Origin: Candidatus Micrarchaeota archaeon
GTDB lineage: Archaea > Micrarchaeota > Micrarchaeia > Micrarchaeales > CABMGC01
NCBI GenBank assembly: GCA_028867025.1
Contig: JAGWHC010000001.1
Coordinates: forward strand, 11,663-75,662
Length of the DNA stretch: 64,000 nucleotides
Direction: 5' to 3'
The position numbers were made by a program, and so were the translations under genes. This document shows positions 1,700-64,000 of this stretch, piece by piece; positions within the stretch are counted from its first letter, which is position 1; every line of letters starts with the position of its first letter. The notes beneath the pieces were generated by a model. The model saw only the letters and a program-made list of their open reading frames with translations. It made no database searches and was not told the origin of the DNA.

Positions 1700-1718
1700 A
1701 TGCTCACTGCCCGTACTA

Positions 1719-2564: not shown

Positions 2565-2638
2565 GATGTACGAGTAGAGTTTGGAAAAATAAAGCTTAAT
2601 AGAGTAGCCTGCAGTGCCTGTTTTCAGAGTTTTGACTG

Positions 2639-4234: not shown

Positions 4235-4333
4235 TCTCTATGCTCTTCACTCTTATCCCTGACCCTGCAACCATAGTGCTAATACACCTCCTACAAGGTA
4301 TAAAAGTTTGTGTCAGGCGACTCTGGTCTGAGG

Positions 4334-17250: not shown

Positions 17251-20200
17251 ATGTCTAATTATAGAACTTGCATGGGCGCCGCTGCGAATAACACCCTTCT
17301 TATCTTCATCTTGGCAGTTTCTCTTTTCTCAATTTCATCATACGCGCAGTCCACCCTTGTTGGCTGCAATAACGTATGCGGAGTCGCATGCCCAGCTTCG
17401 GGGTACAGCACCGCCTCGTGCTCCAGCAGCTATGCGTACACCTGCACCTCGAGTTCATGCGCAACAACCTGCAACCTCTGCGTGCAGATAACAACGCAGT
17501 ACCAGCAGAACACAAACTACCAGTTCCAGTCGTTTTCAACTACCCCGATACCCTCTACTCTTTCCCCCGCTGAAAGCGTCAACCAGTACAACATAGGCAA
17601 CTCGGGCTGGTTCCTCACCTGCCCTGAGCCGCTTGCTCCGATGCTCGGTGACGTGAGCCCGGGGGACAACTCCCTGTTCTATCCCTACACGGCAGACCAC
17701 CAGTTCCAGTGGATCGGAGGCGACGCCTGCCGTGCCAGCACTACGCCGCTCACCTCTACAGTAGACCTGCCTGTCTCGGTAGGCTGGACCGTAGGTCCGA
17801 ACGGGCAATTCGCCTCGGCAAGCGTCGGCACCCTTAGCGTGTCACCGGTAGGCAGCCTGGCGCTCACCAACCTTGCATACTCTCCTGAGCTGGACACAGG
17901 AGGCGCGACGATAGCAAGCAGCTTCAACGTCAACTCCTACGTTTTCCAGTCGATACCTGCGGCTGCGCAGAACGACATCTGGACATGGAGCGCGCCTTTC
18001 GCGAACCTAAACGCTGGGACATCGATCGGCGACTCGCAGACTGTGACCGCCTCGCCAGTTGCGAAGTTCACAGAGTACACCAACCCCACCACCGATGATG
18101 ACACCGGCGGCGTACTTGCAGGAGCCGACAACTCGATACAGAAAAACTCAAACCTTACGCTTGCTGGCACGAGTAACTCCACGAAAAATACGACAGCAAG
18201 CAAAAATTCCACTGCGCTCTTGCTATCCGACACTGGAAAAGCGGCCGCACAGCTCTCCCTGACTGGACTTGGAGGTCAGTGCGCCGTTGGTGACACGTTT
18301 TGCCTGCCTGCATGCGATTCGGGACTGACGTGCAAAGGCAGCGGAACAAGGGGAGAGACGGGAGCGCCGAACTGCGATCTCTGTAACCTGCCCTCGAGCG
18401 GCTGCCACCAATTCGGCACCTGCGTTTCCGTCGCCACCTCCACCACTAGCACCACGACAAGCACCTCTTCTACTACCACTTCCCCCACCACATCTGTGGA
18501 GCCATACGTATGCCAGTACAGCTACGCGTACACCGAGAAGACCACTCTGACAAGCATAAAGAACGAGCAGATACCCTTCAACGAGGTGAACGTGATGACT
18601 GACCCGAACAACCCCGGAGCAAACAAGTACACGTTCAACACATTCCAGACTCCGATACTGCCGTACATAACGCTCGGATACAACATGCCCGCGCTAGACG
18701 GCCAGCAGATGAGCAACAGCTACGACGTCTTCTCGCCATGGAACTACAACACGCCGATAAACTCGATAGAGATGCTGCCGATAGACACGCCAAGCGTGTT
18801 CTTCGTGAACTACAGCGGACAGCTCTCATCAGTTCCCGCGGGCTCGCTGCTAAATCCCGGTTCGCTGAAGAACCTGCTAAGCAACCTTGATAAGTTGCTG
18901 GGCAACTTGGGCAACCTGCTGGGCAGTGGAGTAAGCCAGAAGTCGCAGGCGTCTACGGACCTGTCGCAGTTCGGCCTCTACCAGCCGAACATATACGACC
19001 CGATATCGATCGCGCAGGTGAGCAACGACTACATCTTCGTGCTCAACTACTCAAACCCGAGCAACGGAGGGAATGGCGACTACTACATCAGCGTCTTCAG
19101 GCTCATACCAAGGGGCTACTTCAGCACCAGCGGCCCCGACGCTTACGCGCGCAGCAAAGGGTTGTACAACCTTCAGCAGAGCTGCGATCCGACGCAGTCC
19201 GGCTGCTCCCAGTCGTCGCTGGAGGGCGCGAACCTCCAGAACTGGAACAACAACTGGAACGGGTACTGGGCGAATGTGATCGAGGCGCAGAACTCGAGCG
19301 TGTACCTGATAAGGAGCATTGACCTAGGCAGTCCGACATCATCGAGCACCAGCACTTTCATAGGCGAGTACCTGAGCACGGCGAGCAGTTCCACGAGCTG
19401 CAGCTCCGGAAACAAGTGTTCCGGGATAGACTACTTCTCGCCCATCAACATAACAGCGGATTCGCAGGGAGACGTGTTCATAACTGGGGATCTGGCCAAC
19501 TACAACCACAAGGTAAGCAAGATTTTTGGAGATTATGACTGGGCCGGAATAATGAAAATACCTGCGGTCAACGGTCAGACGCAACCGTCCCCGAGCCAGA
19601 TAAGCAGCACCACTGGCGACTGGTCGTCCACGAGCGGCGTGCCAGTACTGACAGAAATCGCTGTGAGCTCTGACGGCACCTGGCTCTACGCTTCTAACGA
19701 AAACATAGGCACAGTATACCAGTTCTCAGCCAGGAACAAACAGCTGGAGGAGAACCAGGGACTCGACCTGACGTTCGCCACAGGCTTCGGAGCAACCACG
19801 CAAAGCAGCCAGGCCGGAGCTCTGCAGACCTCTTTGAACATAGCATATTACCTGCAGTACGGCGGGCTCTACGGATACAAGTTCGACGGGAGCAGCGGAT
19901 CGCTAAACCTAGCGGCGAGCACTGTAAACCCGAACAACGTGGAGGTCGGCACCGACATGGACAGCAACGCATTCCACCACGCGGTCGGCCTTGAGAACAT
20001 AAACGGCTACATCTACGTGCTCGACGACTGGAAGGGAAGGATCGGCTTCAGCACCTCAAGCGGAGTGGGTTGGTGCTGGACCTTCTGGAGCTGCCCGTCG
20101 CAGAACGGCGGCACGTATTTCGACATACTCGTGCTCCGCGTTCTCGACCCCGCTGGCAACAACGTGCCTATAAACCCGACCCTGTTCAACGACATGTTCA

Positions 20201-23200
20201 CCACGCAGAGCTGCGCTGCAACATACACTCCTCCGGCGCCGACGGGTGGAGGGCAGTCTTACGGCCCGTCAAGCTGCATACCTGAGAGCTCATCATCGCA
20301 GCCTCCGACGATAACGTGCTCCAGCACAGGTGGGGTCGTGTGCAACCCTACATACGCTGGATGCACAACACCCAGCGGAGGCAACGGGGAACGCGAGTAC
20401 TGCTCCGCTGTAGGCAGCAGCTCTGTGAGTGCGGGAGAGTCACAGTACTACGCACTCTCCACCGGCACGTACTTCGCAAGCCAATCGCAGGTCTATCCGC
20501 CATACGGCTGGGTGCTTTCCGCAAACATAACGGCCACGTCCAACGGCGCAAGCCAAGTGTACTCGTGGACGAACACGAATGCCGGGGCACCGCACGGAGC
20601 CGGGGTCGGGATGAGCTGCGCCGCGCAGACCAGCATATACTGCATGACGCTCACGGGCACGTACGTGCTAACTTCGAGCGGCAGCGCCTACTCGTGGACG
20701 AACACGAATGCCGGGGCAGTTCCCGGAGGCGCGGTCAGAATGAGCTGCGTCTCATATAGCTCGACGGTGTTCTGCGTCACGCCAGCAGGCACCTACACGC
20801 TCAGCACCTCTCCGAGGTACTCCTGGAAAAACATAAACTCGGGACCAATCCCCGGAGGCGCGGGAGGCATAAGCTGCATGGCATCGCCTCTCTTCTGCGC
20901 CACGTCGTCGGGCACGTACGAGCTCACGAAAACGTGCAGCGGCTTGACGTGCCAAACCTACACCTACTCATGGACAGACAGCCAGGCGGGGATCGTCCCT
21001 GGATTCTCTACAGGAGTGAGCTGCGTCTCCAACTTCTGCATGACAACAAGGGGCACATACCAATTGACTATCAGCGGAGGGTTTGGAAGCAGCTATTCAT
21101 GGACAGACAGCGGAGCGGGGGTGGTGCCAGGCGCTGGCACGAGCATGAGCTGCGCGGCATCGAGCAACACCTACTGCATGACCCCGACAGGCACGTACTA
21201 CTTGAGCACTTCATACGCCAGCCTCGTGCCCACTTACTCATGGACAGACACGGGAGCAGGATCCGTGCCAGATACTGCCCCTGGAATGAGCTGCGCGGCC
21301 ACCTCATCACCCTACTGCATGACGCTAACAAGCACGTATGTGCTTTCTGTGTCAAGCGGCGTGGGCACCTTCCCGCTCTCGACCACATTCTGCTCGGCTG
21401 ACAACAAGGACTGCATGTTCAACCCTACAAACCTCCCGACGGAGCCGTGGTACACAAGCACATGGAAGCCGGTAGGCCCAGCGCTCAATGCGCAATACGA
21501 CAGCCTCGCACAGACAGGATTTTCGGAAAGCCTCAACAGCACGCTAACAGTACTCTTCAAGCAGTCGAAGTCCTGCAATGGTTTCTGGTGCGGCACGTTC
21601 ATAGGCGGCACCACTGTATCCGATCCAATATACGATGAGCTGCTCACCAGCACGTTCGGGGTGGAGAACTACACAAAGCTGTTCGACGGCGCGCAGCCCT
21701 TCAGTTGCTTCACGAATTCGCAGGGACATGCTGTGCCCGACCCGACCAAGGGATGCGTGTACCTTAACGACAGCCCTGCCGGAGGTGCGGACTACATAGA
21801 TAACATGTATCCGCCGGTGTTCACGACCACCAATCCGCTCAGGTACCTTGAGAGCCTCGGCGCCACGCAGCTGATCACGCAGCCCGGACAGGGCATAGGC
21901 GCGGTGACGGGCAACCAGGGATGCACAGGCGCGACGAGCGGCAGCGGATGCATAACTGCATACATCAAGGGAACGCCGCAGCTGATGATCAACATGTACC
22001 CTGGGAACTGGGGCGTGCCTGACACGATATCGGTGCAGACAACAGGCTCTGAAGCGCCGACAGACTCAATGCAGTTGCAGATAAGCGGGGGCGGACTCGG
22101 AACTCCAATAACTGTTACCAGCCCTGGCAGCGCGAGCTACACAGTATGCTCCAGCCTGAGCGAGACAGTATGCAAGCTTGGAGGAGGGCACACCTACACA
22201 ATAAAGGCAACCGACACAACAACGAAGGACACCTATACCGAGTCAAACTTCCAGATAAACGACATTCCGCTGGTGACGCTGCAGGGTCCGCAGAGCGTTA
22301 TAGTCACCTGCACCAACGGGCAGAGCTCTTGCACTCCAGCCACCGGACTCGTTACTGAGACAACTATGACAATAACTGCCACGCTCCCTCCGGACATGCA
22401 GAACGACCAGGTGTCCATAGGCATAGCGTGCACCAGCGGCAACTGCCAGACTACTGGAGTGAGCTGCGCCACAAACTACGCCTCCATGCTCTACCCGCAA
22501 AACACGCTTATAGAGAGCAACCTCTGCGCGAGTGACAGCGGCACAGCGACATACCAGGTGACCGCTACAGACACTGCGAACGGAGTGCAGGGCTACGCCA
22601 CGTTCCAGGTTGTGCAGTCAGGAGGCACGCCTCCCACCCCGGGCGCAGCGGAATCGCTGACCAGCAGCCTCTCCGGCTACATCATAATCCCATACGAGTA
22701 CACGTACCAGATCAACCAGAACTGGAACATACAGCCCGGAGTAGTGGTCAAGACGTTTGACGGAGACGAGAGCTACTGCCCTCCTCAGTCCCAGGGACCG
22801 ACGAGCAGCATGGTCAACGTGTTCAGCTACTCGCTGGTGAACGGCCAATCAAACCAGATCAGCGCCGCAGTAGAGGGCGGGGGCGCGTACCTCAACGACG
22901 TCTCCAACAACGGCTACTACATAGCCAATCTCACGAACGCGCATCTCGTGCTTCCGCCGCAGATACAGTACAACGTGCAGAACGACAGGCTCTTCGGCAC
23001 CATATGGGCAAATGCAACGTACTGCAGCGGCTCAACATCTTCAGGCTACGACTGCTCCGCAGACAACCAGGTCATTCTCAACGCCACGGTGCAGCTGCAG
23101 TACAGCGTGGAGCAGCACAACGAGTACCCTGGAATCTGCAGCTCTCAGGGCTGCGTGACCTACGGCGGCTACGAGACCTTCGGCACCGCGCCTACGGGGC

Positions 23201-24960
23201 TGCCGTACGGCACGCCTTCAGCATCGCTCATAGCGCCAACGTCGCAGCAGGCCAGGGAGTACCCTCCAAGAGGCACCCTGGGCTCCTCCAGCGCCACGTC
23301 CGCTGACGGCAACGTGCAGATAAGCATAACCCAGGAGCCCATAACGATACAGAACTCTGACTTGGTAACAGCTGCAGCACGCAATGGCGACAGCGTTGAG
23401 CTGCTGCTCAACGGGGTGCAGGTGGGAACCACATCCTACGTGGTGAACCCTGCGGGCTGCGCCTCCACATCGACGTGTCTCGGGGCAGGAACGTACCCGT
23501 TCGAGGCGCTAGACACTGTAACAGGCGAGTCTGTGAGCATCAACCTGATAATACTCCCGCAGCAGATCGGCTTCAAGTTCAACCCAACGCAGAAGTTCTT
23601 CTCCGTCCCTCTCTTCGACCTCTACAAGGAGGTGACCTACGACAGCCCGCTGGGCCTGTATCTGAACGGCACGCAGTACTGCATAGGCCCGAACTGCATA
23701 GGCCAGTATCCACTGCGCGGATACCAGCAGATTGTCTACGTCATGAACGACAGGTTCAACAATCTCATATACGTGCCCGTCGAGGCTGACATAGCGGACC
23801 CGATACAGATAAAGCTGAGCATAACGCAGCAGCCGGATGCGAACAATCCCAACCTCACCTCGATCACTATAAACGGGGTGGCGGGCTCCTACTCCAACAT
23901 AGGCTCCATCTTCACGCCGCTGCCGCAGGGCCAGGACATATACCTGTACTACAACAACAACCTCAACTACGTAAGCTACAACCCGCTTGCCGGAGGCTCG
24001 CAGACGCTTGACGCGGAGTACTGCGCCTTCGGAACTCAGGGCGAGGTGGCGAGCCTCAGCTGCGTCCAGTCAGATCCGGTGTACACCGGCACGTCAACGA
24101 GCCCGAGCAGGACGCAGAACGCGGACGTGGTCACGTACGCGCCCGAGTACAACTCCATTGGCCAGTGCAACCCGCCCACGCAGGGGCTGCTCGAGCCTCA
24201 GAACTTCATGTGCAACGTATACGGCTATCCTGAGGGAGCGGGCCTGCAGAACTCGTGCCCGAGCACGGGCGCGCTCTCGAAGTGCGACGCTGCGTATCCG
24301 TCTGTGGCGCAATGCCTCAGCACAGGCTGGACGCAGCCCACGACCGGCATAATACAGGATCCGCAAAGCTACTGCAGCCAGACAATGCCTGCTGACTACT
24401 CCGCATATCTCAGCTGCGCAGCATCGCAGACGTCTGGCAGCCCGCAGTTCTGCGAGCAGACAGACTACACTACGGGCAACGGCATATGCAGCTCGCAGAT
24501 CGGCCTGATACCATACTCGACGCAGCTTGCCAACGGCCAGTGGCAGGCCCAGAACACTGGAGCGGTGCCGATAAGCGACGGCAACGGCGACTTCTCTACG
24601 CAGCTATACGCGTGCGGCTCAAGGACAGACAGCGTGATAGCGAAGTACTATGGCTGGCCTCCTCCCGAGCCGATTCAGGTGACCCAGGTGCCGCTGGCGT
24701 TCACAGCGAACGCGGTCAACGGGAAGGGAGGATGCACAGGCACATGCAGCTCCTTCGTCTCTACCGAGCGAAGCGGCGGCGGGCAGAACGAGTTCAACTA
24801 CATATACGCACCGTACACCACGAGCCAGAGCGTCCAGATCGGACTCTTCGAGCTCGGCTACGGCAGCCTGAACCTCATCGCGACAGCGGCTACGATTGCG
24901 ACCGCGCTCATCCTGATGTTCAGGCATGAGCTTTTCGCGGGCAGGCGCGGACGGAAATAA
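17251..24960 (+). CDS. Giant (2569 aa) secreted, cysteine-rich, repeat-containing surface protein with a C-terminal membrane anchor
   Basis: A single uninterrupted ORF. The N-terminal signal-like segment is LLIFILAVSLFSISSYA/QS, and the C-terminus is LNLIATAATIATALILMF followed by RHELFAGRRGRK. The alternative start ATG 17272 fits a TATA-like tatttata at 17235. Confidence 0.85.
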   Translation: MSNYRTCMGAAANNTLLIFILAVSLFSISSYAQSTLVGCNNVCGVACPASGYSTASCSSSYAYTCTSSSCATTCNLCVQITTQYQQNTNYQFQSFSTTPIPSTLSPAESVNQYNIGNSGWFLTCPEPLAPMLGDVSPGDNSLFYPYTADHQFQWIGGDACRASTTPLTSTVDLPVSVGWTVGPNGQFASASVGTLSVSPVGSLALTNLAYSPELDTGGATIASSFNVNSYVFQSIPAAAQNDIWTWSAPFANLNAGTSIGDSQTVTASPVAKFTEYTNPTTDDDTGGVLAGADNSIQKNSNLTLAGTSNSTKNTTASKNSTALLLSDTGKAAAQLSLTGLGGQCAVGDTFCLPACDSGLTCKGSGTRGETGAPNCDLCNLPSSGCHQFGTCVSVATSTTSTTTSTSSTTTSPTTSVEPYVCQYSYAYTEKTTLTSIKNEQIPFNEVNVMTDPNNPGANKYTFNTFQTPILPYITLGYNMPALDGQQMSNSYDVFSPWNYNTPINSIEMLPIDTPSVFFVNYSGQLSSVPAGSLLNPGSLKNLLSNLDKLLGNLGNLLGSGVSQKSQASTDLSQFGLYQPNIYDPISIAQVSNDYIFVLNYSNPSNGGNGDYYISVFRLIPRGYFSTSGPDAYARSKGLYNLQQSCDPTQSGCSQSSLEGANLQNWNNNWNGYWANVIEAQNSSVYLIRSIDLGSPTSSSTSTFIGEYLSTASSSTSCSSGNKCSGIDYFSPINITADSQGDVFITGDLANYNHKVSKIFGDYDWAGIMKIPAVNGQTQPSPSQISSTTGDWSSTSGVPVLTEIAVSSDGTWLYASNENIGTVYQFSARNKQLEENQGLDLTFATGFGATTQSSQAGALQTSLNIAYYLQYGGLYGYKFDGSSGSLNLAASTVNPNNVEVGTDMDSNAFHHAVGLENINGYIYVLDDWKGRIGFSTSSGVGWCWTFWSCPSQNGGTYFDILVLRVLDPAGNNVPINPTLFNDMFTTQSCAATYTPPAPTGGGQSYGPSSCIPESSSSQPPTITCSSTGGVVCNPTYAGCTTPSGGNGEREYCSAVGSSSVSAGESQYYALSTGTYFASQSQVYPPYGWVLSANITATSNGASQVYSWTNTNAGAPHGAGVGMSCAAQTSIYCMTLTGTYVLTSSGSAYSWTNTNAGAVPGGAVRMSCVSYSSTVFCVTPAGTYTLSTSPRYSWKNINSGPIPGGAGGISCMASPLFCATSSGTYELTKTCSGLTCQTYTYSWTDSQAGIVPGFSTGVSCVSNFCMTTRGTYQLTISGGFGSSYSWTDSGAGVVPGAGTSMSCAASSNTYCMTPTGTYYLSTSYASLVPTYSWTDTGAGSVPDTAPGMSCAATSSPYCMTLTSTYVLSVSSGVGTFPLSTTFCSADNKDCMFNPTNLPTEPWYTSTWKPVGPALNAQYDSLAQTGFSESLNSTLTVLFKQSKSCNGFWCGTFIGGTTVSDPIYDELLTSTFGVENYTKLFDGAQPFSCFTNSQGHAVPDPTKGCVYLNDSPAGGADYIDNMYPPVFTTTNPLRYLESLGATQLITQPGQGIGAVTGNQGCTGATSGSGCITAYIKGTPQLMINMYPGNWGVPDTISVQTTGSEAPTDSMQLQISGGGLGTPITVTSPGSASYTVCSSLSETVCKLGGGHTYTIKATDTTTKDTYTESNFQINDIPLVTLQGPQSVIVTCTNGQSSCTPATGLVTETTMTITATLPPDMQNDQVSIGIACTSGNCQTTGVSCATNYASMLYPQNTLIESNLCASDSGTATYQVTATDTANGVQGYATFQVVQSGGTPPTPGAAESLTSSLSGYIIIPYEYTYQINQNWNIQPGVVVKTFDGDESYCPPQSQGPTSSMVNVFSYSLVNGQSNQISAAVEGGGAYLNDVSNNGYYIANLTNAHLVLPPQIQYNVQNDRLFGTIWANATYCSGSTSSGYDCSADNQVILNATVQLQYSVEQHNEYPGICSSQGCVTYGGYETFGTAPTGLPYGTPSASLIAPTSQQAREYPPRGTLGSSSATSADGNVQISITQEPITIQNSDLVTAAARNGDSVELLLNGVQVGTTSYVVNPAGCASTSTCLGAGTYPFEALDTVTGESVSINLIILPQQIGFKFNPTQKFFSVPLFDLYKEVTYDSPLGLYLNGTQYCIGPNCIGQYPLRGYQQIVYVMNDRFNNLIYVPVEADIADPIQIKLSITQQPDANNPNLTSITINGVAGSYSNIGSIFTPLPQGQDIYLYYNNNLNYVSYNPLAGGSQTLDAEYCAFGTQGEVASLSCVQSDPVYTGTSTSPSRTQNADVVTYAPEYNSIGQCNPPTQGLLEPQNFMCNVYGYPEGAGLQNSCPSTGALSKCDAAYPSVAQCLSTGWTQPTTGIIQDPQSYCSQTMPADYSAYLSCAASQTSGSPQFCEQTDYTTGNGICSSQIGLIPYSTQLANGQWQAQNTGAVPISDGNGDFSTQLYACGSRTDSVIAKYYGWPPPEPIQVTQVPLAFTANAVNGKGGCTGTCSSFVSTERSGGGQNEFNYIYAPYTTSQSVQIGLFELGYGSLNLIATAATIATALILMFRHELFAGRRGRK
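20560..21360 (+). repeat. Six tandem 43-49-aa coding repeats (YSWT[ND]..AG...SC....C.T..GTY.L) inside the giant gene
   Basis: The repeat heads tactcgtggacgaacacgaatgccggggca (x2) and tactcatggacagaca (x3) are visible in the DNA. Each unit keeps two Cys and a GTY motif. Confidence 0.85.
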
Positions 24961-46627: not shown

Positions 46628-47200
46628 CTAGCCCGCAGTCACTGTGACGTAGCCCAGGGTGCGCTCAAGCAGCCTGCCTCCAGGAGTCGAAGAGTAGACC
46701 ATGACTATGTTCGTGCTGTACTCGCCGCTGCTCTTCGGCTGGTACCCGCTTGCGCCTCCGCTCAGCGTTATGATGCGCGTCGCGCCAGAGAAAAGCGTAG
46801 ATATGCTTGCCGACCTGGGGAACTGCGACGCGTTCGCGAAGGTGAAGTTCGCTGAGAACGGCACCGCGTAGAATGTCACATTGTAGAGCGAAGCGCCCGT
46901 GTCCTGGAGGAAAGTGAAGTTTATCTCTCCGTTGTAAAGGCTCGGGCTGCCGCAGAGGTACAAGGTCTCGAAACCGCAGACGTTCACCACTGCGAGCGTG
47001 TTGCTTGGAAGCGACGAATACAGCGTTGAGACCAGCGGCACCACGACCACGGCCGTGAGGTACACCGCTGTGGCGAGTATGGCTATGACCCTTATCGCGG
47101 GCCAGAAGAGGCTTCCCTTCATTTTGGGCTCTTCGCTCGGCGGCTTGTCGCCGAAATACTCCATTACCTCTTCGCCGCCCTGTTTATCTTTTCCGCCCAT
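46628..47200 (-). CDS. Membrane-anchored protein with a pilin-like globular domain signature but no class III motif
   Basis: TM segment AIRVIAILATAVYLTAVVVVPLV. The following VCGFETLYLCGSPSLYNGEINFTFLQDTGASLYNV parallels the pilins' CIAYSGYECQSPILHGGQFSATIGQSTGSGWTAV. Confidence 0.6.
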   Translation of the reverse strand: MGGKDKQGGEEVMEYFGDKPPSEEPKMKGSLFWPAIRVIAILATAVYLTAVVVVPLVSTLYSSLPSNTLAVVNVCGFETLYLCGSPSLYNGEINFTFLQDTGASLYNVTFYAVPFSANFTFANASQFPRSASISTLFSGATRIITLSGGASGYQPKSSGEYSTNIVMVYSSTPGGRLLERTLGYVTVTAG

Positions 47201-51586: not shown

Positions 51587-52918
51587 TCAGGAGCCCTGGA
51601 TTATGTCGTTCGTGCCTGTCACGCTCTGCTGCGCGACGGTGGTGTTGTCAAGTATGACGAGGTTGTTGTTGCCGCTCGCGGTCAGGTTGCTTATCCTGCT
51701 GTTCACGAACTTGACCCTGTTGTACGTTCCTGTTATGTCAAGAACGACGTTGCTGTCGAACATCGTGACGTTGTTGTAGTTGCCCGCTATCTTGAGCGTT
51801 GCGGTGCTGTTGAATATCGCGAGATTGTTCTGCGAGCCTGTTGAGGAGATGTTGATGAACACATTTGACAGAGTGAACAGGCCTGCGGTGTTGTTCTTTC
51901 CGCTAACAGAGACTGTCTGCGTTGTCTGAGACAGGGCCAGGCAGCCGCCGTTGGTGTTGCCGGAAAGCTTGTAGCTGCCGCCCGTGTAGTTCGTGGCGTT
52001 GAGCGAGTAGACGCCAACAGCCGTCTGGTTCGCGTAGGTCACGTTGACAACGGCTGCGCAGCCGTTCGACAGCGTAGACACGGAAACGTTAATAGACGAG
52101 GCTCCGGGACCCGAGTAAGTGATCTTGGGCTGGCTTCCGGGCTGCGGAGTCACGTTGATGGTGGCCACGTAGAGCGTGTAGCCGAAGACATCAAAAGTGG
52201 CGTTTATGGTGTAGGGGCCGTTGGATCTTATGTTAGGCGCGTATAGCGTAAGGCCTATCTGGGGCTTCTTGAAGCTGCCGGTGGACGAGATGAAAGTTCC
52301 GACGTAGTTCTGCGGCACTGCGCTATTGCAGTCGCCGCCGTTGAATCCGCAGTAGCCCACGTGCGCAGTTATGTTTCCGTTCGACTGCGAGCCTGGCTGC
52401 TGGAACGCGCTAAGCTTTGCGTAGCATACGAACGACTGCCCCGGCTTTATCTTGCCTCCGGTGCACTTGGCGTTGGTAGGCTGACCGTTGACAAGCACTG
52501 TAAGGCCGAGGTTCGTTATGGGATACTCCTGGGAGTTGCTTCCCGCCATGGCAAACATTGTTGACGTGGAATTGGAGGTTACGATGACATCGCCGCACGC
52601 GACCCCAAGGTCGAAGTTGCACATTGGCGCTGCGACGCTTCCCACGCTGGACCCTATGCCCAATAACGTGTATGCGGCACCAATCATTACACTGAGACCG
52701 GCCACGAATGTCAACAGGAACTCTATTGACACCTGGGCCCTCAGTCCACCTGGCGTTTCCCCCACCCCACCGCTCTGTAATGCCCGATGAGTATTATGCG
52801 TTCCGAAGTATTTAAGCTTTGGTATTAGCTTGGACGCATATTGGTGGCTTTTGGTCTGCCTTTTGTCGTCGCCCTTAGGGCTGGCGCTATCTCTAGCGCT
52901 ATTGAAAGTGTGAAGCAT
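51587..52918 (-). CDS. Large class III signal-peptide (pilin-like) surface protein, paralogue 1
   Basis: LRAQVSIEFLLTFVAGLSVMIGAAYTLLGI carries the Q-x-S-x-E class III motif plus a hydrophobic helix. It is followed by a Cys-hairpin domain and an N-x-S/T-dense C-terminal repeat region. The alternative start GTG 52765 gives a short leader. Confidence 0.75.
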   Translation of the reverse strand: MLHTFNSARDSASPKGDDKRQTKSHQYASKLIPKLKYFGTHNTHRALQSGGVGETPGGLRAQVSIEFLLTFVAGLSVMIGAAYTLLGIGSSVGSVAAPMCNFDLGVACGDVIVTSNSTSTMFAMAGSNSQEYPITNLGLTVLVNGQPTNAKCTGGKIKPGQSFVCYAKLSAFQQPGSQSNGNITAHVGYCGFNGGDCNSAVPQNYVGTFISSTGSFKKPQIGLTLYAPNIRSNGPYTINATFDVFGYTLYVATINVTPQPGSQPKITYSGPGASSINVSVSTLSNGCAAVVNVTYANQTAVGVYSLNATNYTGGSYKLSGNTNGGCLALSQTTQTVSVSGKNNTAGLFTLSNVFINISSTGSQNNLAIFNSTATLKIAGNYNNVTMFDSNVVLDITGTYNRVKFVNSRISNLTASGNNNLVILDNTTVAQQSVTGTNDIIQGS

Positions 52919-53041: not shown

Positions 53042-54265
53042 CTAGGAGCTCTGTATTATGTCGTTGGTGCCGGTCACAGTCTCCTTAGAGACAGTGGTGT
53101 TCACCAGGACTATGAGGTTGTTGTTGCCGCTCGCGGTCAGGTTGCTTATCCTGCTGTTCACGAACTTGACCTGGTTGTACGTTCCTGTTATGTCGAGCAC
53201 CACATCGCTGTTGTACATTGTCACATTGTTGTTGTTTCCAGCTATCTTTAGCGTGGCGGTGCTGTTGAACACAGCGAGATTGTTCTGCGAACCGGTGGAT
53301 GAGACGTTGATGAAGACGTTTGAGAGTGTGAAGAGGCCGGCTGTGTTCGACTTGCCGCTGACCGACACGGAGGTTGTGCCTGACGAAAGCAGCTTGCACT
53401 GGCTCCCGCTGTTCCCGGAGAGCGAGAATGACGAGCCTGTGTAGTTGCTTGTGTTGAGCGCCACCACGCCCGTGGAGGTGAAGTTTGAGTAGGTTACATT
53501 GACTATCCCAGCGCAATAGTCGGCCAGCGTGTTGACCGACACGTTTAGCAATGACGCCTGGGGACCCGAATATGAGATTGCGGGCGGAGCGCCTGACTGC
53601 GGCGTCAGTGTTATGGTACCAAGCTCCTGCGCATAGCCGAAGACCTCGAAGCTGGAGTTGATCTCGTAAGAGCCGTTGGGCTCCTTTATAGGAGCGAACA
53701 GCATGATTCCTATCTGCGGCTTTACGAACCTTCCAGTGGTAGAGACGTAGGCGCCGGAGTAGCTCTCCGAGACGCCGCTGCCGCAGTCGCCGCCGTTGAA
53801 GCCGCAGTATTCGAAGCTTGCGGTGGCGTTGCCTACGACCTGGTAGCCGGACTGCTGGAACGCGCCCAGGTTTCCGAAGCATACGAAGACCTGGCCGGGC
53901 CTTATCTTTCCTTTTGTGCAGCGCGCTGTCGCTGACTTGCCGTTCAGCGTGACTGTGAGGCTGACAGCGTTTATCGGGAACTCTTGGGAGTTGGTTCCGA
54001 GCATGGCGAATTCAGTGGATGTGGAGTTTGACGCGATGACGAAGTCGCTGCAGTTTATGCCCAGGCTGAAAGTGCAGCGGGAAGGTATCGCGTTCCCTAT
54101 GCCGCTCAGCGCATGCAGAAGGAGAAACGAGGCCACTATGGCAATCGCGACTCCGAAGGCAAGAGCCGTTATCTCCTCTATGCTTACCTGCTCCTTCTCC
54201 TCGTAAGATTTTGCCCCGCGCTTGCGCGCAGTCTTGGCCAAGTGTTCCACCCCACGCTTCCGCAC
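53042..54265 (-). CDS. Large class III signal-peptide (pilin-like) surface protein, paralogue 2
   Basis: EKEQVSIEEITALAFGVAIAIVASFLLL, collinear with paralogue 1. The C-terminal ~130 aa are near-identical, with a 58-nt exact DNA match (53114..53171 = 51659..51716). Confidence 0.75.
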   Translation of the reverse strand: MRKRGVEHLAKTARKRGAKSYEEKEQVSIEEITALAFGVAIAIVASFLLLHALSGIGNAIPSRCTFSLGINCSDFVIASNSTSTEFAMLGTNSQEFPINAVSLTVTLNGKSATARCTKGKIRPGQVFVCFGNLGAFQQSGYQVVGNATASFEYCGFNGGDCGSGVSESYSGAYVSTTGRFVKPQIGIMLFAPIKEPNGSYEINSSFEVFGYAQELGTITLTPQSGAPPAISYSGPQASLLNVSVNTLADYCAGIVNVTYSNFTSTGVVALNTSNYTGSSFSLSGNSGSQCKLLSSGTTSVSVSGKSNTAGLFTLSNVFINVSSTGSQNNLAVFNSTATLKIAGNNNNVTMYNSDVVLDITGTYNQVKFVNSRISNLTASGNNNLIVLVNTTVSKETVTGTNDIIQSS

Positions 54266-55851: not shown

Positions 55852-56711
55852 TGCAGAGCATGAGAGTGGGCGATTTTGACATAACGCACACTATCGAGAG
55901 CGCGCAGCCGCTCACATTTATCGGGGACGAGAGGCCTGACAGGAAGGGAATCACGTACACTTGCGGGGACAGTTTTGTGGAGGTCGACCAGAGGGGCAAG
56001 CGCCTGGCATACAGGGCCTACGGATCGCTTGGCCGCGCGCGCCTCAGCAGGGAGATAATTGCAAGGTTCGGGCTAGGGGACGACATGGGCGATGTTTACA
56101 GGCGCATAGGCACAGACGCTTTCATGAAGAAAGCTGTGAGTAGGTACAGGGGGATGCGCATAACAAGGAACGAGCCCTGGGAGACTGCCCTGTGCTTCGT
56201 GATCTCGCAGTTCAACAGCGTGAAGAGGATACGTGGCATAGTCAAGAGGCTCATCGCAGCGTACGGGAGGGAGCACACGTTCTCGGCTGGAAGCGTGAGG
56301 CTCAGCTTCAGGAGCTTCCCTTCCCCTGAGTCGATAGCGGAAAGGAGCACGGGCGACCTGATGGCGCACGGCGCGGGATTCAGGGCAAGGTACATGAGGG
56401 CGGTGGCGAGGGAGTGGAGCGAGCAGCGCGGTTTCAGCAAACTGCGCGACAAGGACTATGCGGAAGCCAAGGAGGAGCTGATGTCGCTCGAAGGCGTCGG
56501 CGACAAGGTTGCCGACTGCATACTCCTTTTCGGCTACGGCAGGCTCGAGGCCTTCCCGATAGACACGTGGATAAAGCGGGTCGTGGAGCGCGTCTACTTC
56601 AGAGGGAGGAAGCAGAGCATAAGGAAGATACACGAGTTTGCAGATGAAAGATGGGGCGCGTACGCAGGTTACGCCCAGCAGTACATGTTCCATTTTGCTA
56701 GAAATGAGTGA
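55848..56711 (+). CDS. ogg: 8-oxoguanine DNA glycosylase / AP lyase (HhH-GPD superfamily, Ogg-type)
   Basis: LMSLEGVGDKVADCILLFGYGRLEAFPIDTWIKRV is the HhH-GPD motif with the catalytic K/D pattern. It overlaps glyS by 4 nt. Confidence 0.75.
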   Translation: MMQSMRVGDFDITHTIESAQPLTFIGDERPDRKGITYTCGDSFVEVDQRGKRLAYRAYGSLGRARLSREIIARFGLGDDMGDVYRRIGTDAFMKKAVSRYRGMRITRNEPWETALCFVISQFNSVKRIRGIVKRLIAAYGREHTFSAGSVRLSFRSFPSPESIAERSTGDLMAHGAGFRARYMRAVAREWSEQRGFSKLRDKDYAEAKEELMSLEGVGDKVADCILLFGYGRLEAFPIDTWIKRVVERVYFRGRKQSIRKIHEFADERWGAYAGYAQQYMFHFARNE

Positions 56712-57298
56712 TTGATTTGATGCGAAGCATACCTGATGTTGCAAGGATAGAAAGGCGGTTGCTGGACCTGCAGAAGAAAAAGGACAGGGTGCTCGAGCTT
56801 TCGCGCGACGTCGTGCGCGTCGCGGGCAAGTCCATAACTGAGATGCATGCCGGGAATCTGAGGGAGGCGGGCAGTGGAATGAAGCGCATCACCGCGCTCG
56901 TCTCCAGGCTCAGAAAGATCGAAAAGGGATTCGAGTACTTCTCCGTGCAGGCGCATCAGGAGTACGTGGAGGCGATGGCGTTCTACATTATACTGAAGGA
57001 GCGCAGGCTCGCCTCAGCCGGCGAGCTGCGCGTCGGCGAGATACCTTACCTTCTGGGCATGATGGACCTGACAGGAGAGCTGAAGCGCGAGGCGATAGAG
57101 TCGATAAGGGAGGAGGACCTGGACGCGGCCAACGCATACTACGGCTTCATGAAGGGCATCTACGACTCCACGAGGGCTATGCGCTTCGCGAACTCGCTTG
57201 TGCCCGAGTTCAGGAGGAAGCAGGACACAGCGCGCATACAGCTGGAAACCACTGCCGGAGAGCTGCTTTCCGCTGTGCGGAAACGAAGAAATGTTTAA
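56708..57298 (+). CDS. Translin-family nucleic-acid-binding protein (COG2178-like)
   Basis: HQEYVEAMAFYIIL...IPYLLGMMDLTGELKREAIE matches the translin Y-L-x-G-x-x-D-x-x-GEL motif. It overlaps ogg by 4 nt. Confidence 0.65.
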   Translation: MIDLMRSIPDVARIERRLLDLQKKKDRVLELSRDVVRVAGKSITEMHAGNLREAGSGMKRITALVSRLRKIEKGFEYFSVQAHQEYVEAMAFYIILKERRLASAGELRVGEIPYLLGMMDLTGELKREAIESIREEDLDAANAYYGFMKGIYDSTRAMRFANSLVPEFRRKQDTARIQLETTAGELLSAVRKRRNV

Positions 57299-57342
57299 AT
57301 TACTTCCTGTCGCATAATCCCAATAAGGCATGGATTGAGACG

Positions 57343-57867
57343 ATGACTAACAATAGGAAGTTTGTGAAAGCGCAGAGCGCGATGGAATACCTGATGACCT
57401 ACGGATGGGCAATACTCATCATCGCGGTCGTGCTGGGGGCGCTGTTCTCGCTGGGCGTGTTCAGCAGCGGATCGCTGCTGGGGACGAGCTGCATCGCTTA
57501 CTCTGGCTATGAGTGTCAGAGCCCGATTCTACACGGCGGCCAATTCTCCGCTACGATAGGACAATCGACAGGCTCTGGCTGGACTGCGGTAAACATAATA
57601 CTTGTCGGATACGGAACAGCCAATCCTGCCGCAGCGCAGTTCGCATTCGTTAATTGCTACCCGTCACAGACAGGCCTGTCTATATCCAGCGGATCTGCGG
57701 TAACATTCAGTACTTACAACTCTGTTTCGGGAAGCACACCTGCCTGCACGCTATTGCCTACTACAGTGGGCACAGCCTTTGCGGGAGGCATCTGGGCTTT
57801 CTACACATCCGGAGGAACCGCAGGATTGATATCGCAGCTCGCGACGCTGAACGTCAAGGCCACATAA
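57343..57867 (+). CDS. Type IV pilin-like protein (class III signal peptide), copy 1
   Basis: MTNNRKFVKA/QSAMEYLMTYGWAILIIAVVLGALFSLGVF has a short basic leader, Q at +1, E at +5 and a hydrophobic helix. The length is 174 aa. Confidence 0.8.
   Translation: MTNNRKFVKAQSAMEYLMTYGWAILIIAVVLGALFSLGVFSSGSLLGTSCIAYSGYECQSPILHGGQFSATIGQSTGSGWTAVNIILVGYGTANPAAAQFAFVNCYPSQTGLSISSGSAVTFSTYNSVSGSTPACTLLPTTVGTAFAGGIWAFYTSGGTAGLISQLATLNVKAT
57365..57506 (+). repeat. 142-nt 5' cassette, identical to 57974..58115
   Basis: Character-by-character comparison of tgaaagcgcagagcgcgatgg...catcgcttactctgg shows no mismatch. Confidence 0.9.
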
Positions 57868-57910
57868 GCAGCCGCTTGTTCATGGCTTTGCCCCTGCCGT
57901 ATTTGAGATA

Positions 57911-57920
57911 AATTTAAATA
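57911..57920 (+). promoter_or_regulatory. TATA-like box of pilin copy 2
   Basis: aatttaaata lies about 35 nt upstream of ATG 57952, and caggag lies 6-11 nt upstream of the ATG. Confidence 0.45.
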
Positions 57921-57951
57921 CGTGACGATTGAAGAGTATTCAGGAGTTTGC

Positions 57952-58473
57952 ATGGGAAAGAACGTTAAGATGTTGAAAGCGCAGAGCGCGATGGAATACC
58001 TGATGACCTACGGATGGGCAATACTCATCATCGCGGTCGTGCTGGGGGCGCTGTTCTCGCTGGGCGTGTTCAGCAGCGGATCGCTGCTGGGGACGAGCTG
58101 CATCGCTTACTCTGGTTACGTATGTTCGAACCCTCTGCTTCACAGCGGCGTCTTCTCGGCCACGGTGGGCCAGTCCACAGGAACCGCGTGGACCACTGTT
58201 AACATAATATTCCTAGGATACGGATCAGCCACGCCTGTGGCGGGCTCGTTCACCTCGGGCTGCGCCTCGAGCTTCGCAACGATATCAAGCGGCCAGCAGG
58301 TCTCGTTTGCGAGCACAAACGACGTTACTGGAACAGTTCCTAGCACATGCACGTCGCTTGCCAGCACGGGCGTGGGAGGCACTGTCGCAGGAGGCATCTG
58401 GGCTACCTACACCGCAAGCGGAACGAGCGGACTCATATCGCAGCTCGCGACGCTGAACGTCAAGGCATCATAG
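57952..58473 (+). CDS. Type IV pilin-like protein (class III signal peptide), copy 2
   Basis: MGKNVKMLKA/QSAMEYLMTYGWAILIIAVVLGALFSLGVF. The central domain diverges from copy 1, and the last 32 nt before the final codon are identical to copy 1 (58435..58466 = 57829..57860). Confidence 0.8.
   Translation: MGKNVKMLKAQSAMEYLMTYGWAILIIAVVLGALFSLGVFSSGSLLGTSCIAYSGYVCSNPLLHSGVFSATVGQSTGTAWTTVNIIFLGYGSATPVAGSFTSGCASSFATISSGQQVSFASTNDVTGTVPSTCTSLASTGVGGTVAGGIWATYTASGTSGLISQLATLNVKAS
57974..58115 (+). repeat. 142-nt 5' cassette, identical to 57365..57506
   Basis: See 57365..57506. Confidence 0.9.
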
Positions 58474-58559
58474 CACCTACCTTTGCAAGGAGTTTTTCCA
58501 GACGTAGCGCAGCGCGGATAAGGCTTTAAATGTAATATGACAAACGTAGAATTGAGCCT

Positions 58560-59234
58560 ATGAAGATTCTGGGGAACCAACCAAGTATCGGCGCGGTCAA
58601 GCGCGTATTTTCAAGGCGCTTGAACCTCATATTCTCGGTCTTGATGGTGATAGTGGCCGCTTCAGTGCCGCTGGGCATGGGCGCATTCAACAACACCGGC
58701 CCTCTCCACAAGACGATGGTGTCGTTGCGCTCGAAGGAGGTCAAGGCGCAGAGCGCGATGGAATACCTGATGACCTACGGATGGGCAATACTCATCATCG
58801 CGGTAGTGCTGGGGGCGCTGTTCTCGCTGGGCGTGTTCAGCAGCAACAATTCGCTGGGGACAAGCTGCATATCAAATGCAGGCTACCTCTGCTCGAACCC
58901 TCAGATTCATGGAGGCACGCTCACTGTCAACGTGGGTCAACTCACCGGCAGCAGCTGGACCACAGTGAACGTGCTGCTTGTGGAAACAGGCGCCCCCGCT
59001 CCGACCACATCCTCGTTCGCGCTCTCGTGCGCGCAGCAGTTCTCGAGCGGGATAAACAACGGCCAGCAGGTTGCGATGTCGGTCACTGGAGGCATTACTT
59101 CAGGAGGAGCGTGCACTGCGCTTCCGAGCAGCGTTGGCACAGCAGTGTCGGGAGCCGTATGGGCCCAGTACACCGTAGGTTCGAACAGCGGGCTGATAGC
59201 AAAGCTCGCCGGGATATCGGTCAAGGTTTCCTGA
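58560..59234 (+). CDS. Type IV pilin-like protein, copy 3 (possible long N-terminal extension; canonical-length form would start at ATG 58716)
   Basis: ...MVSLRSKEVKA/QSAMEYLMTYGWAILIIAVVLGALFSLGVF. ATG 58560 lies about 32 nt after the TATA-like ctttaaatg (58524-58532), and ATG 58716 gives a 172-aa pilin. Confidence 0.75.
   Translation: MKILGNQPSIGAVKRVFSRRLNLIFSVLMVIVAASVPLGMGAFNNTGPLHKTMVSLRSKEVKAQSAMEYLMTYGWAILIIAVVLGALFSLGVFSSNNSLGTSCISNAGYLCSNPQIHGGTLTVNVGQLTGSSWTTVNVLLVETGAPAPTTSSFALSCAQQFSSGINNGQQVAMSVTGGITSGGACTALPSSVGTAVSGAVWAQYTVGSNSGLIAKLAGISVKVS
58746..58844 (+). repeat. 99-nt 5' cassette, one mismatch relative to copies 1 and 2
   Basis: gcgcagagcgcgatggaatacc...gtgttcagcagc has a single c-to-a difference (cggtCgtg vs cggtAgtg). 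Confidence 0.85.
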
Positions 59235-63215: not shown

Positions 63216-63379
63216 ATATATTTAAAAGTTGGGTTGCGTATCCATTTGTTATATCCTTATACTGGAAAAGTCGGCGCGCTTCTTGCTTTCAATCTGCTCA
63301 TACTCTTTGTAATGCTTCTCGTCCTGTGAGTTTCTGCGGTCGCAGTAGATTATTAAAGTGTTGATTCTGCAATAAGCTC

Positions 63380-63721
63380 ATGGTTCAGGGGAGTGCCACG
63401 CCTTTACTGGTCGGCTGCCTACTGGCGCTTGGGATATCGGTTGGGACTGCGTTTGCAATGAACGCCACCACGGGCAACACCATCAATTCGACTACAATTT
63501 CAAACTCCACGGCCAACTCTGCTTCTTCGCAACGGCAGTCATCTCCGTATGGCGCTTTCATAGAGATAGTTCTGGTTGTCGTGATAGTGGCGATGATAGT
63601 CATCTTCCTGATGCTCGGAAAGCCGCCCTCAAGCGGAGCGTACGAGAACCAGGAACCGCAGGTAACTGACCAAAGCGGCGAACCGAGCGGAAATACTAAC
63701 GTACCCAAGCCAGAGTACTAG
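63380..63721 (+). CDS. Small secreted/membrane-anchored protein with N/S/T-rich stalk
   Basis: Signal-like LLVGCLLALGISVGTAFA, then NATTGNTINSTTISNSTANS, then the TM IEIVLVVVIVAMIVIFLML. Confidence 0.5.
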   Translation: MVQGSATPLLVGCLLALGISVGTAFAMNATTGNTINSTTISNSTANSASSQRQSSPYGAFIEIVLVVVIVAMIVIFLMLGKPPSSGAYENQEPQVTDQSGEPSGNTNVPKPEY

Positions 63722-63744
63722 CTGCTGCGGAGCAAAAGAGAAGA

Positions 63745-64000
63745 CTACAGCTTAATCTCGGCAAGCTTGGCCTTTATTTCTGGAAAATTCGCCCTGAAAA
63801 GAGCCTCGTCTTCAAGGACGCGCTCCTTCTCCTGGGCCGAGGTCACCAGGAATATGACATTGTGCACATCTAGCGTTCTGACGAGCAGTTCCGCGTCTGC
63901 AAGCGCAGACTCGAACCTGGGCACACGCAGGACATAGGTTGCCTTGTCGTCAAGCCCGGCCCTGCTCACCAGCTCTGTGGTCGGCGCCTTGCTCGGCTTT
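63745..64000 (-). CDS. C-terminal fragment of an unidentified protein; 5' end outside the window
   Basis: The minus-strand frame stays open from the TAG at 63745 to the window edge (...KPSKAPTTELVSRAGLDDKATYVLRVPRF...). Confidence 0.5.
   Translation of the reverse strand, partial: KPSKAPTTELVSRAGLDDKATYVLRVPRFESALADAELLVRTLDVHNVIFLVTSAQEKERVLEDEALFRANFPEIKAKLAEIKL

Follow-up and report, generated by a model that had tools for sequence, protein, structure and literature searches.

How do neighbouring genes come to share DNA that is identical letter for letter at their 5' ends, when the proteins that they encode differ over most of their length? This question is raised by three tandem pilin-like genes, here called g1, g2 and g3, at positions 57343 to 59234 of a 64,000-nucleotide stretch of the metagenome-assembled genome (MAG) of a Candidatus Micrarchaeota archaeon (GenBank assembly GCA_028867025.1, contig JAGWHC010000001.1, positions 11,663 to 75,662). 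The whole stretch is called the window, positions are counted in it unless another locus is named, and related loci are labelled L001, L002 and so on; the records of g1 and g3 (KGH57_00330 and KGH57_00340) stand on the 658-kb contig of this MAG. We consider it probable that the three genes are independently transcribed Micrarchaeota type IV pilin-like paralogues whose 5' ends have been homogenised by gene conversion. The genes and their blocks of identical DNA are the following.

57343..57867, plus strand: g1, pilin-like gene, 174 amino acids (aa); NCBI KGH57_00330; open reading frame (ORF) with a 100% match to P0001
57952..58473, plus strand: g2, pilin-like gene, 173 aa from ATG 57952; leader MGKNVKMLKA
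58716..59234, plus strand: g3, pilin-like gene, short form, 172 aa; leader MVSLRSKEVKA
57365..57506, plus strand: 5' homogenised block, copy 1, 142 nt; codons K-2 and A-1 and mature residues 1-45
57974..58115, plus strand: 5' homogenised block, copy 2, an exact match to copy 1
58746..58844, plus strand: 5' homogenised block, copy 3, 99 nt ungapped with 1 mismatch to copies 1 and 2
57829..57860, plus strand: 3' identical block, copy 1, 32 nt; ISQLATLNVKA, C-terminal strand
58435..58466, plus strand: 3' identical block, copy 2, an exact match to copy 1

Identical blocks and synonymous sites

The original prediction, made from the letters of the window, had described two perfect identities between g1 and g2 and a third, shorter match in g3. 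Exact string comparison bears this out: the 142-nt and 32-nt blocks are both maximal, the flanking base differing on either side, and the ungapped alignment of the third copy covers 99 nt, of which one is a mismatch. All three ORFs do encode KA/QSAMEYLMTYGWAILIIAVVLGALFSLGVF, as had been claimed; the three share mature residues 1-32 exactly, and their outer domains are 42-58% identical. The scaffold that had been read in the middles is present in its [SN]P...GQ.TG..WT.VN part, while the spacing of the cysteines, given as C-x6-C, is actually C-x7-C.

The two parts of the genes are clearly separated at synonymous sites. In a codon alignment treated by the Nei-Gojobori method, the proportion of synonymous differences (pS) between g1 and g2 is 0 over the 142-nt block versus 0.66 in the middle, where the proportion of nonsynonymous differences (pN) is 0.31; comparing g3 with g1 or g2 by the same method gives a pS of 0-0.1 for the helix segment, as opposed to 0.56-0.70 for the middle. 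A Fisher test limited to codons that stand for the same degenerate amino acid in both genes gives the same picture, with 43/44 identical codons between g1 and g2 in the 5' block versus 43/69 outside it (p=7e-6), and with p=9e-6 for g1/g3 and p=2e-4 for g2/g3. The 32-nt block at the 3' end is not significant by this test (11/13 identical codons versus 32/56 outside the 5' block, p=0.11); its identity could be explained by a conserved C-terminal strand and codon usage, and L083, a contig of a related strain, has 31/32 nt of it. The suggestion that identical ends beside diverged cores reflect conversion or recombination is thus upheld for the 5' block, by the synonymous sites and by the syntenic loci and the hybrid gene described below, and it does not extend to the 3' cassette.

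Probable gene conversion across related genomes

In the compared loci the array lies immediately upstream of the convergent dph2 gene. On its left stands a translin-like gene in the window, L001, L003/L004 and L083, and other genes (GDH/NUDIX) in the more distant L002 and L027. In the window the two flanking genes are these.

56708..57298, plus strand: translin-like gene, left flank; the syntenic genes in L001, L003 and L083 carry PF01997
59221..60189, minus strand: dph2 (diphthamide synthase), right flank; the syntenic genes in L001, L002, L003 and L027 carry PF01866

The 3' end of g3 overlaps dph2 by 14 nt, and the identity of the alignment between the window and L083 is 81% across the translin-like gene. 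Array size, counted in family genes, differs from locus to locus.

L083 and L027: 1 gene
L003/L004/L005 (one species): 2 genes
Window: 3 genes
L001: 4 genes, one of them divergent
L002: 4 genes, and one more about 3 kb upstream

The divergent fourth member of L001, called 'c' (9199-9786 of that locus, 195 aa), lies inside the array; it is without the QSAMEY motif and keeps the hydrophobic N-terminus and the C-x-C scaffold, and gene d starts 3 nt past its stop codon.

The comparison of genes that encode the same N-terminus is informative on the origin of the 5' identity. Where the first 32 aa are identical and the genomes are different, a median of 16/96 nt differ (n=99; minimum 1, next lowest 7); where they are identical within the same genome, often only 0-3 nt differ (n=34). 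The block begins near the start of each gene, as it would if selection at the nucleotide or mRNA level (e.g. on translation initiation or targeting) kept the 5' sequence, but the identical peptide is written in other genomes with that median of 16 synonymous differences, the L001 paralogues differ from each other at 15-23/99 nt and no Rfam match was found in the region from 56.5 to 60.5 kb. Moreover, between orthologues the number of synonymous substitutions per site (dS) in the block is 0.47-1.06, with a nonsynonymous counterpart (dN) of about 0, and the outer domain has a dS of 0.30-2.1; synonymous sites diverge in the block no less than elsewhere in the gene, which excludes a constraint at the nucleotide level, and we give this explanation next to no credence. 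The 5' identity is best attributed to gene conversion and not to selection on the protein.

This attribution agrees with the way in which the two parts of the genes pair. The outer domains pair by type (67% aa identity for L001_a/L005_a and 70% for L001_b/L005_b, with 38% for L005_a/L005_b), and the 5' DNA pairs by genome, L005_a and L005_b differing at 7/132 nt, with an exact run of 114 nt, and the orthologues at 17-22 nt. The pattern is the one by which concerted evolution is recognised: paralogues are closer within a genome in the tract, the flanks show the opposite, and the synonymous deficit is confined to the tract, which starts at the cleavage-site codons.

A homogenised 5' block beside diverged bodies is found in the window, L002, L005, L007 (a 110-nt run), L016, L017, L025 and L036; L059 shows 5' identity too, as a recent whole-gene duplicate, and with it the genomes that have homogenised blocks number at least nine. 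In other genomes, among them L001 (at the 15-23 differences given above), L013, L019, L020, L021 and L047, the paralogues are not homogenised. Because some genomes are homogenised and others are not, conversion is episodic and lineage-specific.

Recent tandem duplication followed by very fast divergence of the middles would give identical ends without conversion. Genuine recent duplicates do exist in the family, since L002 c/d and the L059 pair are 93-100% identical throughout, but in the window the middles are saturated, the pS of 0.66 corresponding to a Jukes-Cantor-corrected dS of about 1.6, beside a block pS of 0. Moreover, the split between L001 and L005 came later than that between paralogue types a and b, and the body of g2 has an orthologue in the single gene of L083 at 89% nt identity, whereas the body of g1 has none there. 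This explanation is very improbable.

L083 is a contig of 1,559 nt, 81-94% identical to the window at the nucleotide level, in which translin and dph2 enclose only one gene. In a three-way alignment this gene has the upstream region, the TATA-like box and the leader (MTNNRKF) of g1, followed by the body and the 3' flank of g2, after which the end of dph2 follows directly; the switch from g1-like to g2-like sequence falls inside the shared block. Such an arrangement would be the product expected of a crossover between the blocks of g1 and g2, together with the absence of g3. No other g1-type body at 70-100% identity is present in the protein collection, which is consistent with its true absence in the related strain. 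The block of L083 differs from that of the window by about 11 synonymous differences and in the window itself the blocks of g1 and g2 are identical, so the last conversion in the window took place after the strains had split.

L002 offers another view of the process. Here the whole 700-nt unit is repeated, promoter included, and two adjacent copies are 100% identical; the copies diverge mainly in codons 86-150, with a pS of 0.23-0.46 and a pN/pS of 0.76-0.88.

An artefact of metagenome assembly, through collapse of repeats or smoothing of the consensus, was also weighed. There is a single assembly of the window's genome, and a 142-nt repeat approaches the largest k-mer sizes of assemblers. Both copies of the block, however, stand in distinct, syntenic flanks; the pattern is repeated in three records of a sister species (GCA_027364115.1, ERZ27237490 and JAKASU010000001.1, with two genes and a 114-nt exact block), in L002, whose MAG is chromosome-level and consists of one contig, and in several further species. 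Without conversion roughly 16 differences would be expected, more than the one or two that smoothing could conceal; an artefact is in our judgement extremely improbable. The L002 record presumably comes from a long-read project. An exact scan of the metagenome contigs of the Joint Genome Institute (JGI) with a window-specific 32-mer of the block gave no match and hence no population variants.

Promoters, predicted fold and function

Each gene of the array is preceded by the same TATA-box-like motif, TTTAAAT, and g3 has an in-frame extension upstream of its short form.

57294..57300, plus strand: TTTAAAT before g1, 49 nt before the ATG
57913..57919, plus strand: TTTAAAT before g2, 39 nt before the ATG
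58525..58531, plus strand: TTTAAAT before g3, 35 nt before ATG 58560
58560..58715, plus strand: in-frame 52-codon extension of g3; a basic stretch and a hydrophobic helix ahead of the KA/Q site

TTTAAAT has six plus-strand sites in the 64 kb (33679, 43378, 57294, 57913, 58525 and 63034), three of which precede the three pilin genes, and its minus-strand sites are at 63226, 57918, 43383 and 26402. The sites at 33679, 43378, 57913, 58525 and 63226 (minus) lie 35-39 nt ahead of start codons, the distance being 35-37 nt outside the pilin array; this suggests that TTTAAAT is the TATA-box consensus of the genome and that 5' leaders are mostly short or absent. Apart from this motif, the leaders and promoter regions of g1-g3 are unrelated.

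The start codons are not equally clear. The leader of g1 is MTNNRKFVKA, with predicted cleavage before Q11. In g2 an AGGAG stands 6 nt before ATG 57952, and a start at the upstream GTG 57922 is unlikely. The start of g3 is ambiguous, since ATG 58716 gives a normal 10-residue leader and ATG 58560, chosen in the annotation of KGH57_00340, gives a protein of 224 aa. The extension may be either translated or a 5' leader; it has no homologue by blastn or tblastx in 83 loci, nor in the protein collection. The annotated 224-aa form may be real because the TTTAAAT at 58525 is at the usual distance (35 nt) from ATG 58560.

The protein family is large. Homologues of g1 number 2,561 at E <= 1e-3; those with a named source among the best 120 of the 2,561 are all from Micrarchaeota-type MAGs, some of them labelled Marsarchaeota, and among the matches listed all are hypothetical and none has a precomputed Pfam domain. 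The first ~33 mature residues are near-invariant across the entire family. The original prediction had assigned g1-g3 a class III signal peptide of the QxSxExxxL type. Its prepilin-type positions K(-2), A(-1), Q(+1) and E(+5) are indeed there, but the Pfam Class_IIIsignal model, PF04021 (DUF361, gathering score 23.7 bits), is matched neither by the full proteins at E<=1 nor by the isolated N-termini at E<=10, and the motif is only partly fitted because S stands at +2 (with A at +3) and T at +9. Archaeal prepilins are recognised by a charged residue at -2, G, A or S at -1 and a cleavage site ahead of a hydrophobic domain of at least 20 residues (PMC4371748); g1-g3 have a short basic leader, K(-2), A(-1) and a hydrophobic stretch of ~30 residues, and their KA/Q site is similar to the RAQ/KGQ sites at which EppA processes the Epd pilins of Methanococcus maripaludis (PMC4371748, Table 1).

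Modelling of the pilin domains points, weakly, in the same direction. The AlphaFold2 model of g1, built with 58 homologues (pLDDT 85.8, pTM 0.73), has a helix (residues 13-36) and after it a beta-sandwich, and the top Foldseek match in the PDB is 8fk7_A, a subunit of the archaeal type IV pilus of Pyrobaculum calidifontis (E 2.4e-3), with generic Ig-like domains below it. Each of g1-g3 has four cysteines, of which C50 and C58 are invariant in the 58 homologues, and g1 and g2 are without an N-glycosylation sequon. Sequence and model together support a pilin-like character of the three proteins.

We propose the following sequence of events. The preprotein with its short basic leader would be cut after K-A by a prepilin peptidase of the FlaK/EppA type, and this cleavage would expose Q(+1) of the hydrophobic helix QSAMEYLMTYGWAILIIAVVLGALFSLGVFS; almost invariant, this helix would make up the core of the filament, a disulfide-containing beta-sandwich of ~125 residues forming its surface. 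The outer domains are old, distinct paralogue types, each under purifying selection, that most likely give filaments or subunits with differing surface or adhesion properties, as with Haloferax PilA1-6. Because the protein sequence of the core helix is nearly invariant, its DNA would stay similar enough for the tandem copies to recombine there by homology. Such recombination, where non-reciprocal, would periodically wipe out synonymous differences, in tracts of ~100-140 nt reaching from the cleavage-site codons, where homology begins, and occasional unequal crossing-over through the block would delete or duplicate genes and make hybrids, which would explain both the array sizes of 1-5 and the gene with the leader of g1 and the body of g2. 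Homogenisation may be advantageous, in that subunits stay able to co-assemble, or a mere by-product of homology; it is not required, as long-unconverted arrays such as that of L001 show.

The evolution of the outer domains bears on what the array is for. Between orthologues their dN/dS is 0.14, 0.13 and 0.19, that is, they are under purifying selection; the paralogue types had arisen before the compared species separated, and none of the three copies is incomplete, every one having its start codon, its signal peptide and a TATA-like box of its own. It had been suggested that shuffled middles allow surface variation. Under programmed surface variation, the 5' block (and perhaps the 3' block) would be a handle for shuffling outer-domain cassettes at high frequency, and the filaments shown to hosts or viruses would change, as an archaeal analogue of pilin antigenic variation. 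Mosaic genes with sharp boundaries, copy numbers of 1-5, the hybrid gene in a related strain and the L002 mid-segment values would all suit such a mechanism. On the other hand, orthologous outer domains persist across species at a dN/dS of 0.13-0.19, no copy is a silent or partial cassette, the 3' handle is not significant, and several genomes, e.g. L001, have gone long without exchange; moreover, no G-quadruplex motif and no meaningful inverted repeat were found in 56.5-60.5 kb, and no recombinase gene near the array. We regard programmed variation as unlikely, and the data agree better with the alternative that had been put beside it, a set of distinct pilins. The purifying selection, the age of the paralogue types and the TTTAAAT ahead of each gene favour pilins that form a stable set, are expressed separately, differ in function and have one assembly-competent core helix in common.

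A wider version of the recombination scheme can be formulated, in which the 5' block is a hub for population-level diversification of pilins in DPANN archaea, with the hybrids and the arrays of 1-5 copies as its outcome. Lineages would then re-tool the surface of their attachment filaments, upon host switching or in escape from viruses, and keep one assembly-competent core. We hold this to be a rather doubtful extension.

The N-terminus of the family is not limited to small proteins. The sequence QSAMEYLMTYGWAILI... heads proteins of 280-640 aa in L010 (the chromosome of Ca. Micrarchaeum sp. A_DKE), L055 and L061-L070, and the cultured strain A_DKE has one QSAMEYLMTYGWAILI-headed protein of at least 543 aa. 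In L027, tandem LamG-domain (PF13385) proteins that carry the pilin N-terminus lie at 1319-4499 of the locus. Because the same N-terminus heads much longer proteins, the module seems to act as a general tag for the export or assembly of various surface proteins of Micrarchaeota. The S-layer protein of Ca. Micrarchaeum harzensis was considered as a family member and rejected, Micr_00292 having an S-layer domain of the PF05123 type and a different signal; the co-culture paper on this organism does not mention pili, and the N-terminal peptide of the family was not found in the literature searched.

It is conceivable that g1-g3 carry a prepilin-type signal on proteins that are not filament subunits but surface proteins, or proteins presented by a pseudopilus, in the manner of the bindosome binding proteins of Sulfolobus or the pseudopilins of type II secretion systems (T2SS), the N-terminus serving only for export and anchoring; 5' homogenisation would happen all the same. 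Consistent with this are the many C-terminal domains, LamG included, that follow the module in Micrarchaeota proteins of 280-640 aa, and the class III signals that are known on non-pilin binding proteins (bioRxiv 10.64898/2026.04.22.720090). But small size, a single Ig-like domain, tandem multiplicity and a highly conserved helix typify major pilins, a pilus subunit gives the best match in structure and the Pfam scan detected no ligand-binding domain, so that we see only a small chance that the proteins have such a role.

The machinery that would assemble the filament has to be sought elsewhere in the genome. Among the fetched loci, a PilB-like ATPase gene stands near family members only in L027, where two LamG-domain proteins with the family N-terminus are encoded directly upstream of a T2SSE ATPase (PF00437, E 1e-32), 1.5 kb from the family pilin that adjoins dph2; by this arrangement the N-terminal module is tied to an ATPase of the type IV filament kind. 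Close homologues of this ATPase (~438 aa) are found across the Micrarchaeota, ARMAN-2 and the L002 chromosome among them, and no protein of the window's 658-kb contig is among the best 120 matches to it. In L084 the T2SSE gene stands alone, with no platform-protein gene beside it. The Micrarchaeota member Mia14 is reported to have two type IV pilus systems, one of them of the Methanococci/Thermococci type, and one FlaK-like prepilin peptidase; its key pilus components are said to be common to many Micrarchaea, and pili-like structures have been seen between ARMAN and Thermoplasmatales cells (PMC5498576). In DPANN archaea a type IV filament (TFF) 'system 1', which is Epd-like, has also been described (bioRxiv 10.64898/2026.04.22.720090).

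Several observations weigh against the reading of g1-g3 as pilin paralogues with converted 5' ends. The pilin role of the family is a prediction, drawn here from sequence and model; scans against Pfam and NCBIfam assign neither g1-g3 nor the N-terminus on its own to a family; the structural match to a pilin is weak (TM 0.36/0.44); and a profile search of the PDB with the family returned only a non-significant match (E 0.46) to 9i5h_C, deposited as 'Flagellin', the alignment covering the hydrophobic N-terminal segment. No ATPase, platform protein or prepilin peptidase is encoded in the 64-kb window, and the long form of g3, with a second hydrophobic helix before the cleavage site, would have an awkward topology for a prepilin. 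With respect to conversion, L083 is a short MEGAHIT contig in which a mis-join through the repeat is possible, and smoothing of near-identical repeats may slightly overstate the 'perfect' identity.

Neighbouring genes, significance and known systems

Three further genes of the window, outside the array, encode proteins that resemble pilins or carry related signals.

51587..52918, minus strand: larger protein with a class III-like signal RA/QVSIEFLL, 443 aa; many N-x-S/T sequons
53042..54265, minus strand: its paralogue with a degenerate signal KE/QVSIEEI, 407 aa; 61% identical to the 51587-52918 protein
46628..47200, minus strand: distant pilin-like protein, 190 aa, membrane-anchored; C-x7-C-x-SP...Q.TG scaffold with a different N-terminus

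The 51587-52918 protein matches PF04021 weakly (11.5 bits, E 0.3), and its signal region aligns to the pilin profile. Together with its paralogue it has a highly conserved C-terminal repeat region, and the position of the pair is syntenic in L001 and L003; the two may be accessory pilins or adhesins. The 46628-47200 protein gives a weak hhalign match to the family profile (E 2e-4, probability 45%) and may be an accessory subunit.

Other features of the region are more remote from the array. At 17251-24960 (plus strand) the window has an ORF of 2,569 aa with an N-terminal signal-like segment, rich in Cys, Ser and Thr, that is probably a large surface protein. In L001 (14135-16546) and L003 (11768-16519) small unannotated genes and a DUF87/FtsK/TrwB-like ATPase (HerA/VirB4-like) form a conserved cluster downstream of a superoxide dismutase (SOD) gene, in L001 also of a VapBC pair; its counterpart in the window's genome would lie just beyond 63380-64000, most of it past the end of the window. 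The cluster may serve to translocate DNA or protein.

Attachment to host cells is the way of life of Micrarchaeota and other DPANN archaea, and electron microscopy has shown them joined to Thermoplasmatales hosts by pili-like structures. The family described here, unannotated and phylum-wide, with a near-invariant core helix of 33 residues and 1-5 genes beside dph2, is a concrete candidate for the subunits of filaments between Micrarchaeota and their hosts. In addition, it is an archaeal multigene family in which gene conversion restricted to one segment can be followed cleanly and in numbers, with homogenised polymerisation segments and surface domains that are old and distinct, although the kind is already known, both as sets of archaeal type IV pilin paralogues with a shared H-domain and as concerted evolution of filament-subunit genes. 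On the practical side, the conserved N-terminus can be used as a profile to annotate surface proteins of Micrarchaeota, including the LamG-fused forms and those of 500-600 aa, trees of array genes must leave out the 5' block, and short-read assemblies of these arrays call for caution.

Three of the known systems resemble the array in part. As in g1-g3, the pilE/pilS type IV pilin genes of Neisseria have a constant N-terminal segment, and their copies recombine with one another. In Neisseria, however, the variable part is copied from silent, promoterless, partial cassettes into one expression locus in a process that depends on a G-quadruplex (G4), whereas in g1-g3 the copies are complete and have TATA-like boxes, it is the constant part that is converted, no G4 is found and the variable parts are under purifying selection. 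Antigenic variation of the Neisseria type was accordingly rejected for this array, which has no silent copies and no G4 and whose outer domains have a dN/dS of 0.13-0.19.

In flaA/flaB of Campylobacter, and in bacterial flagellins with conserved ends and variable middles, the segments of the polymerisation interface are homogenised by gene conversion and the surface middle diverges. These proteins belong to another superfamily and another domain of life, and in g1-g3 only the 5' end is demonstrably converted, in tracts of ~100-140 nt.

The Epd pilins of M. maripaludis share with g1-g3 the Q at +1 after [KR]-[GA]. The major Epd pilin is without a globular domain (bioRxiv 10.64898/2026.04.22.720090), unlike g1-g3, which carry the ~125-residue beta-sandwich and leave PF04021 unmatched, and no Epd-like gene cluster adjoins g1-g3.

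The closest described analogue of g1-g3 is the set PilA1-PilA6 of Haloferax volcanii. There is no detectable sequence relationship between the two, with no match of g1-g3 to a PF07790-type or other Pfam model, and homology to the haloarchaeal PilA (arCOG02416) is not indicated by the Pfam and NCBIfam scans; the cleavage site of Haloferax PilA is [DR]A/VS, that of g1-g3 KA/Q with E(+5). To our knowledge, homogenisation at the DNA level has not been examined for the Haloferax pilA1-6 genes; g1-g3, unlike these, form one tandem array at a conserved chromosomal site. Both are nevertheless sets of paralogues with an almost fully conserved H-domain and divergent outer domains, and both are encoded apart from pilB/pilC. 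In Haloferax each of the PilA1-6 paralogues can build a pilus, and adhesion and microcolony behaviour differ between them (Esquivel et al. 2013; PMC4371748).

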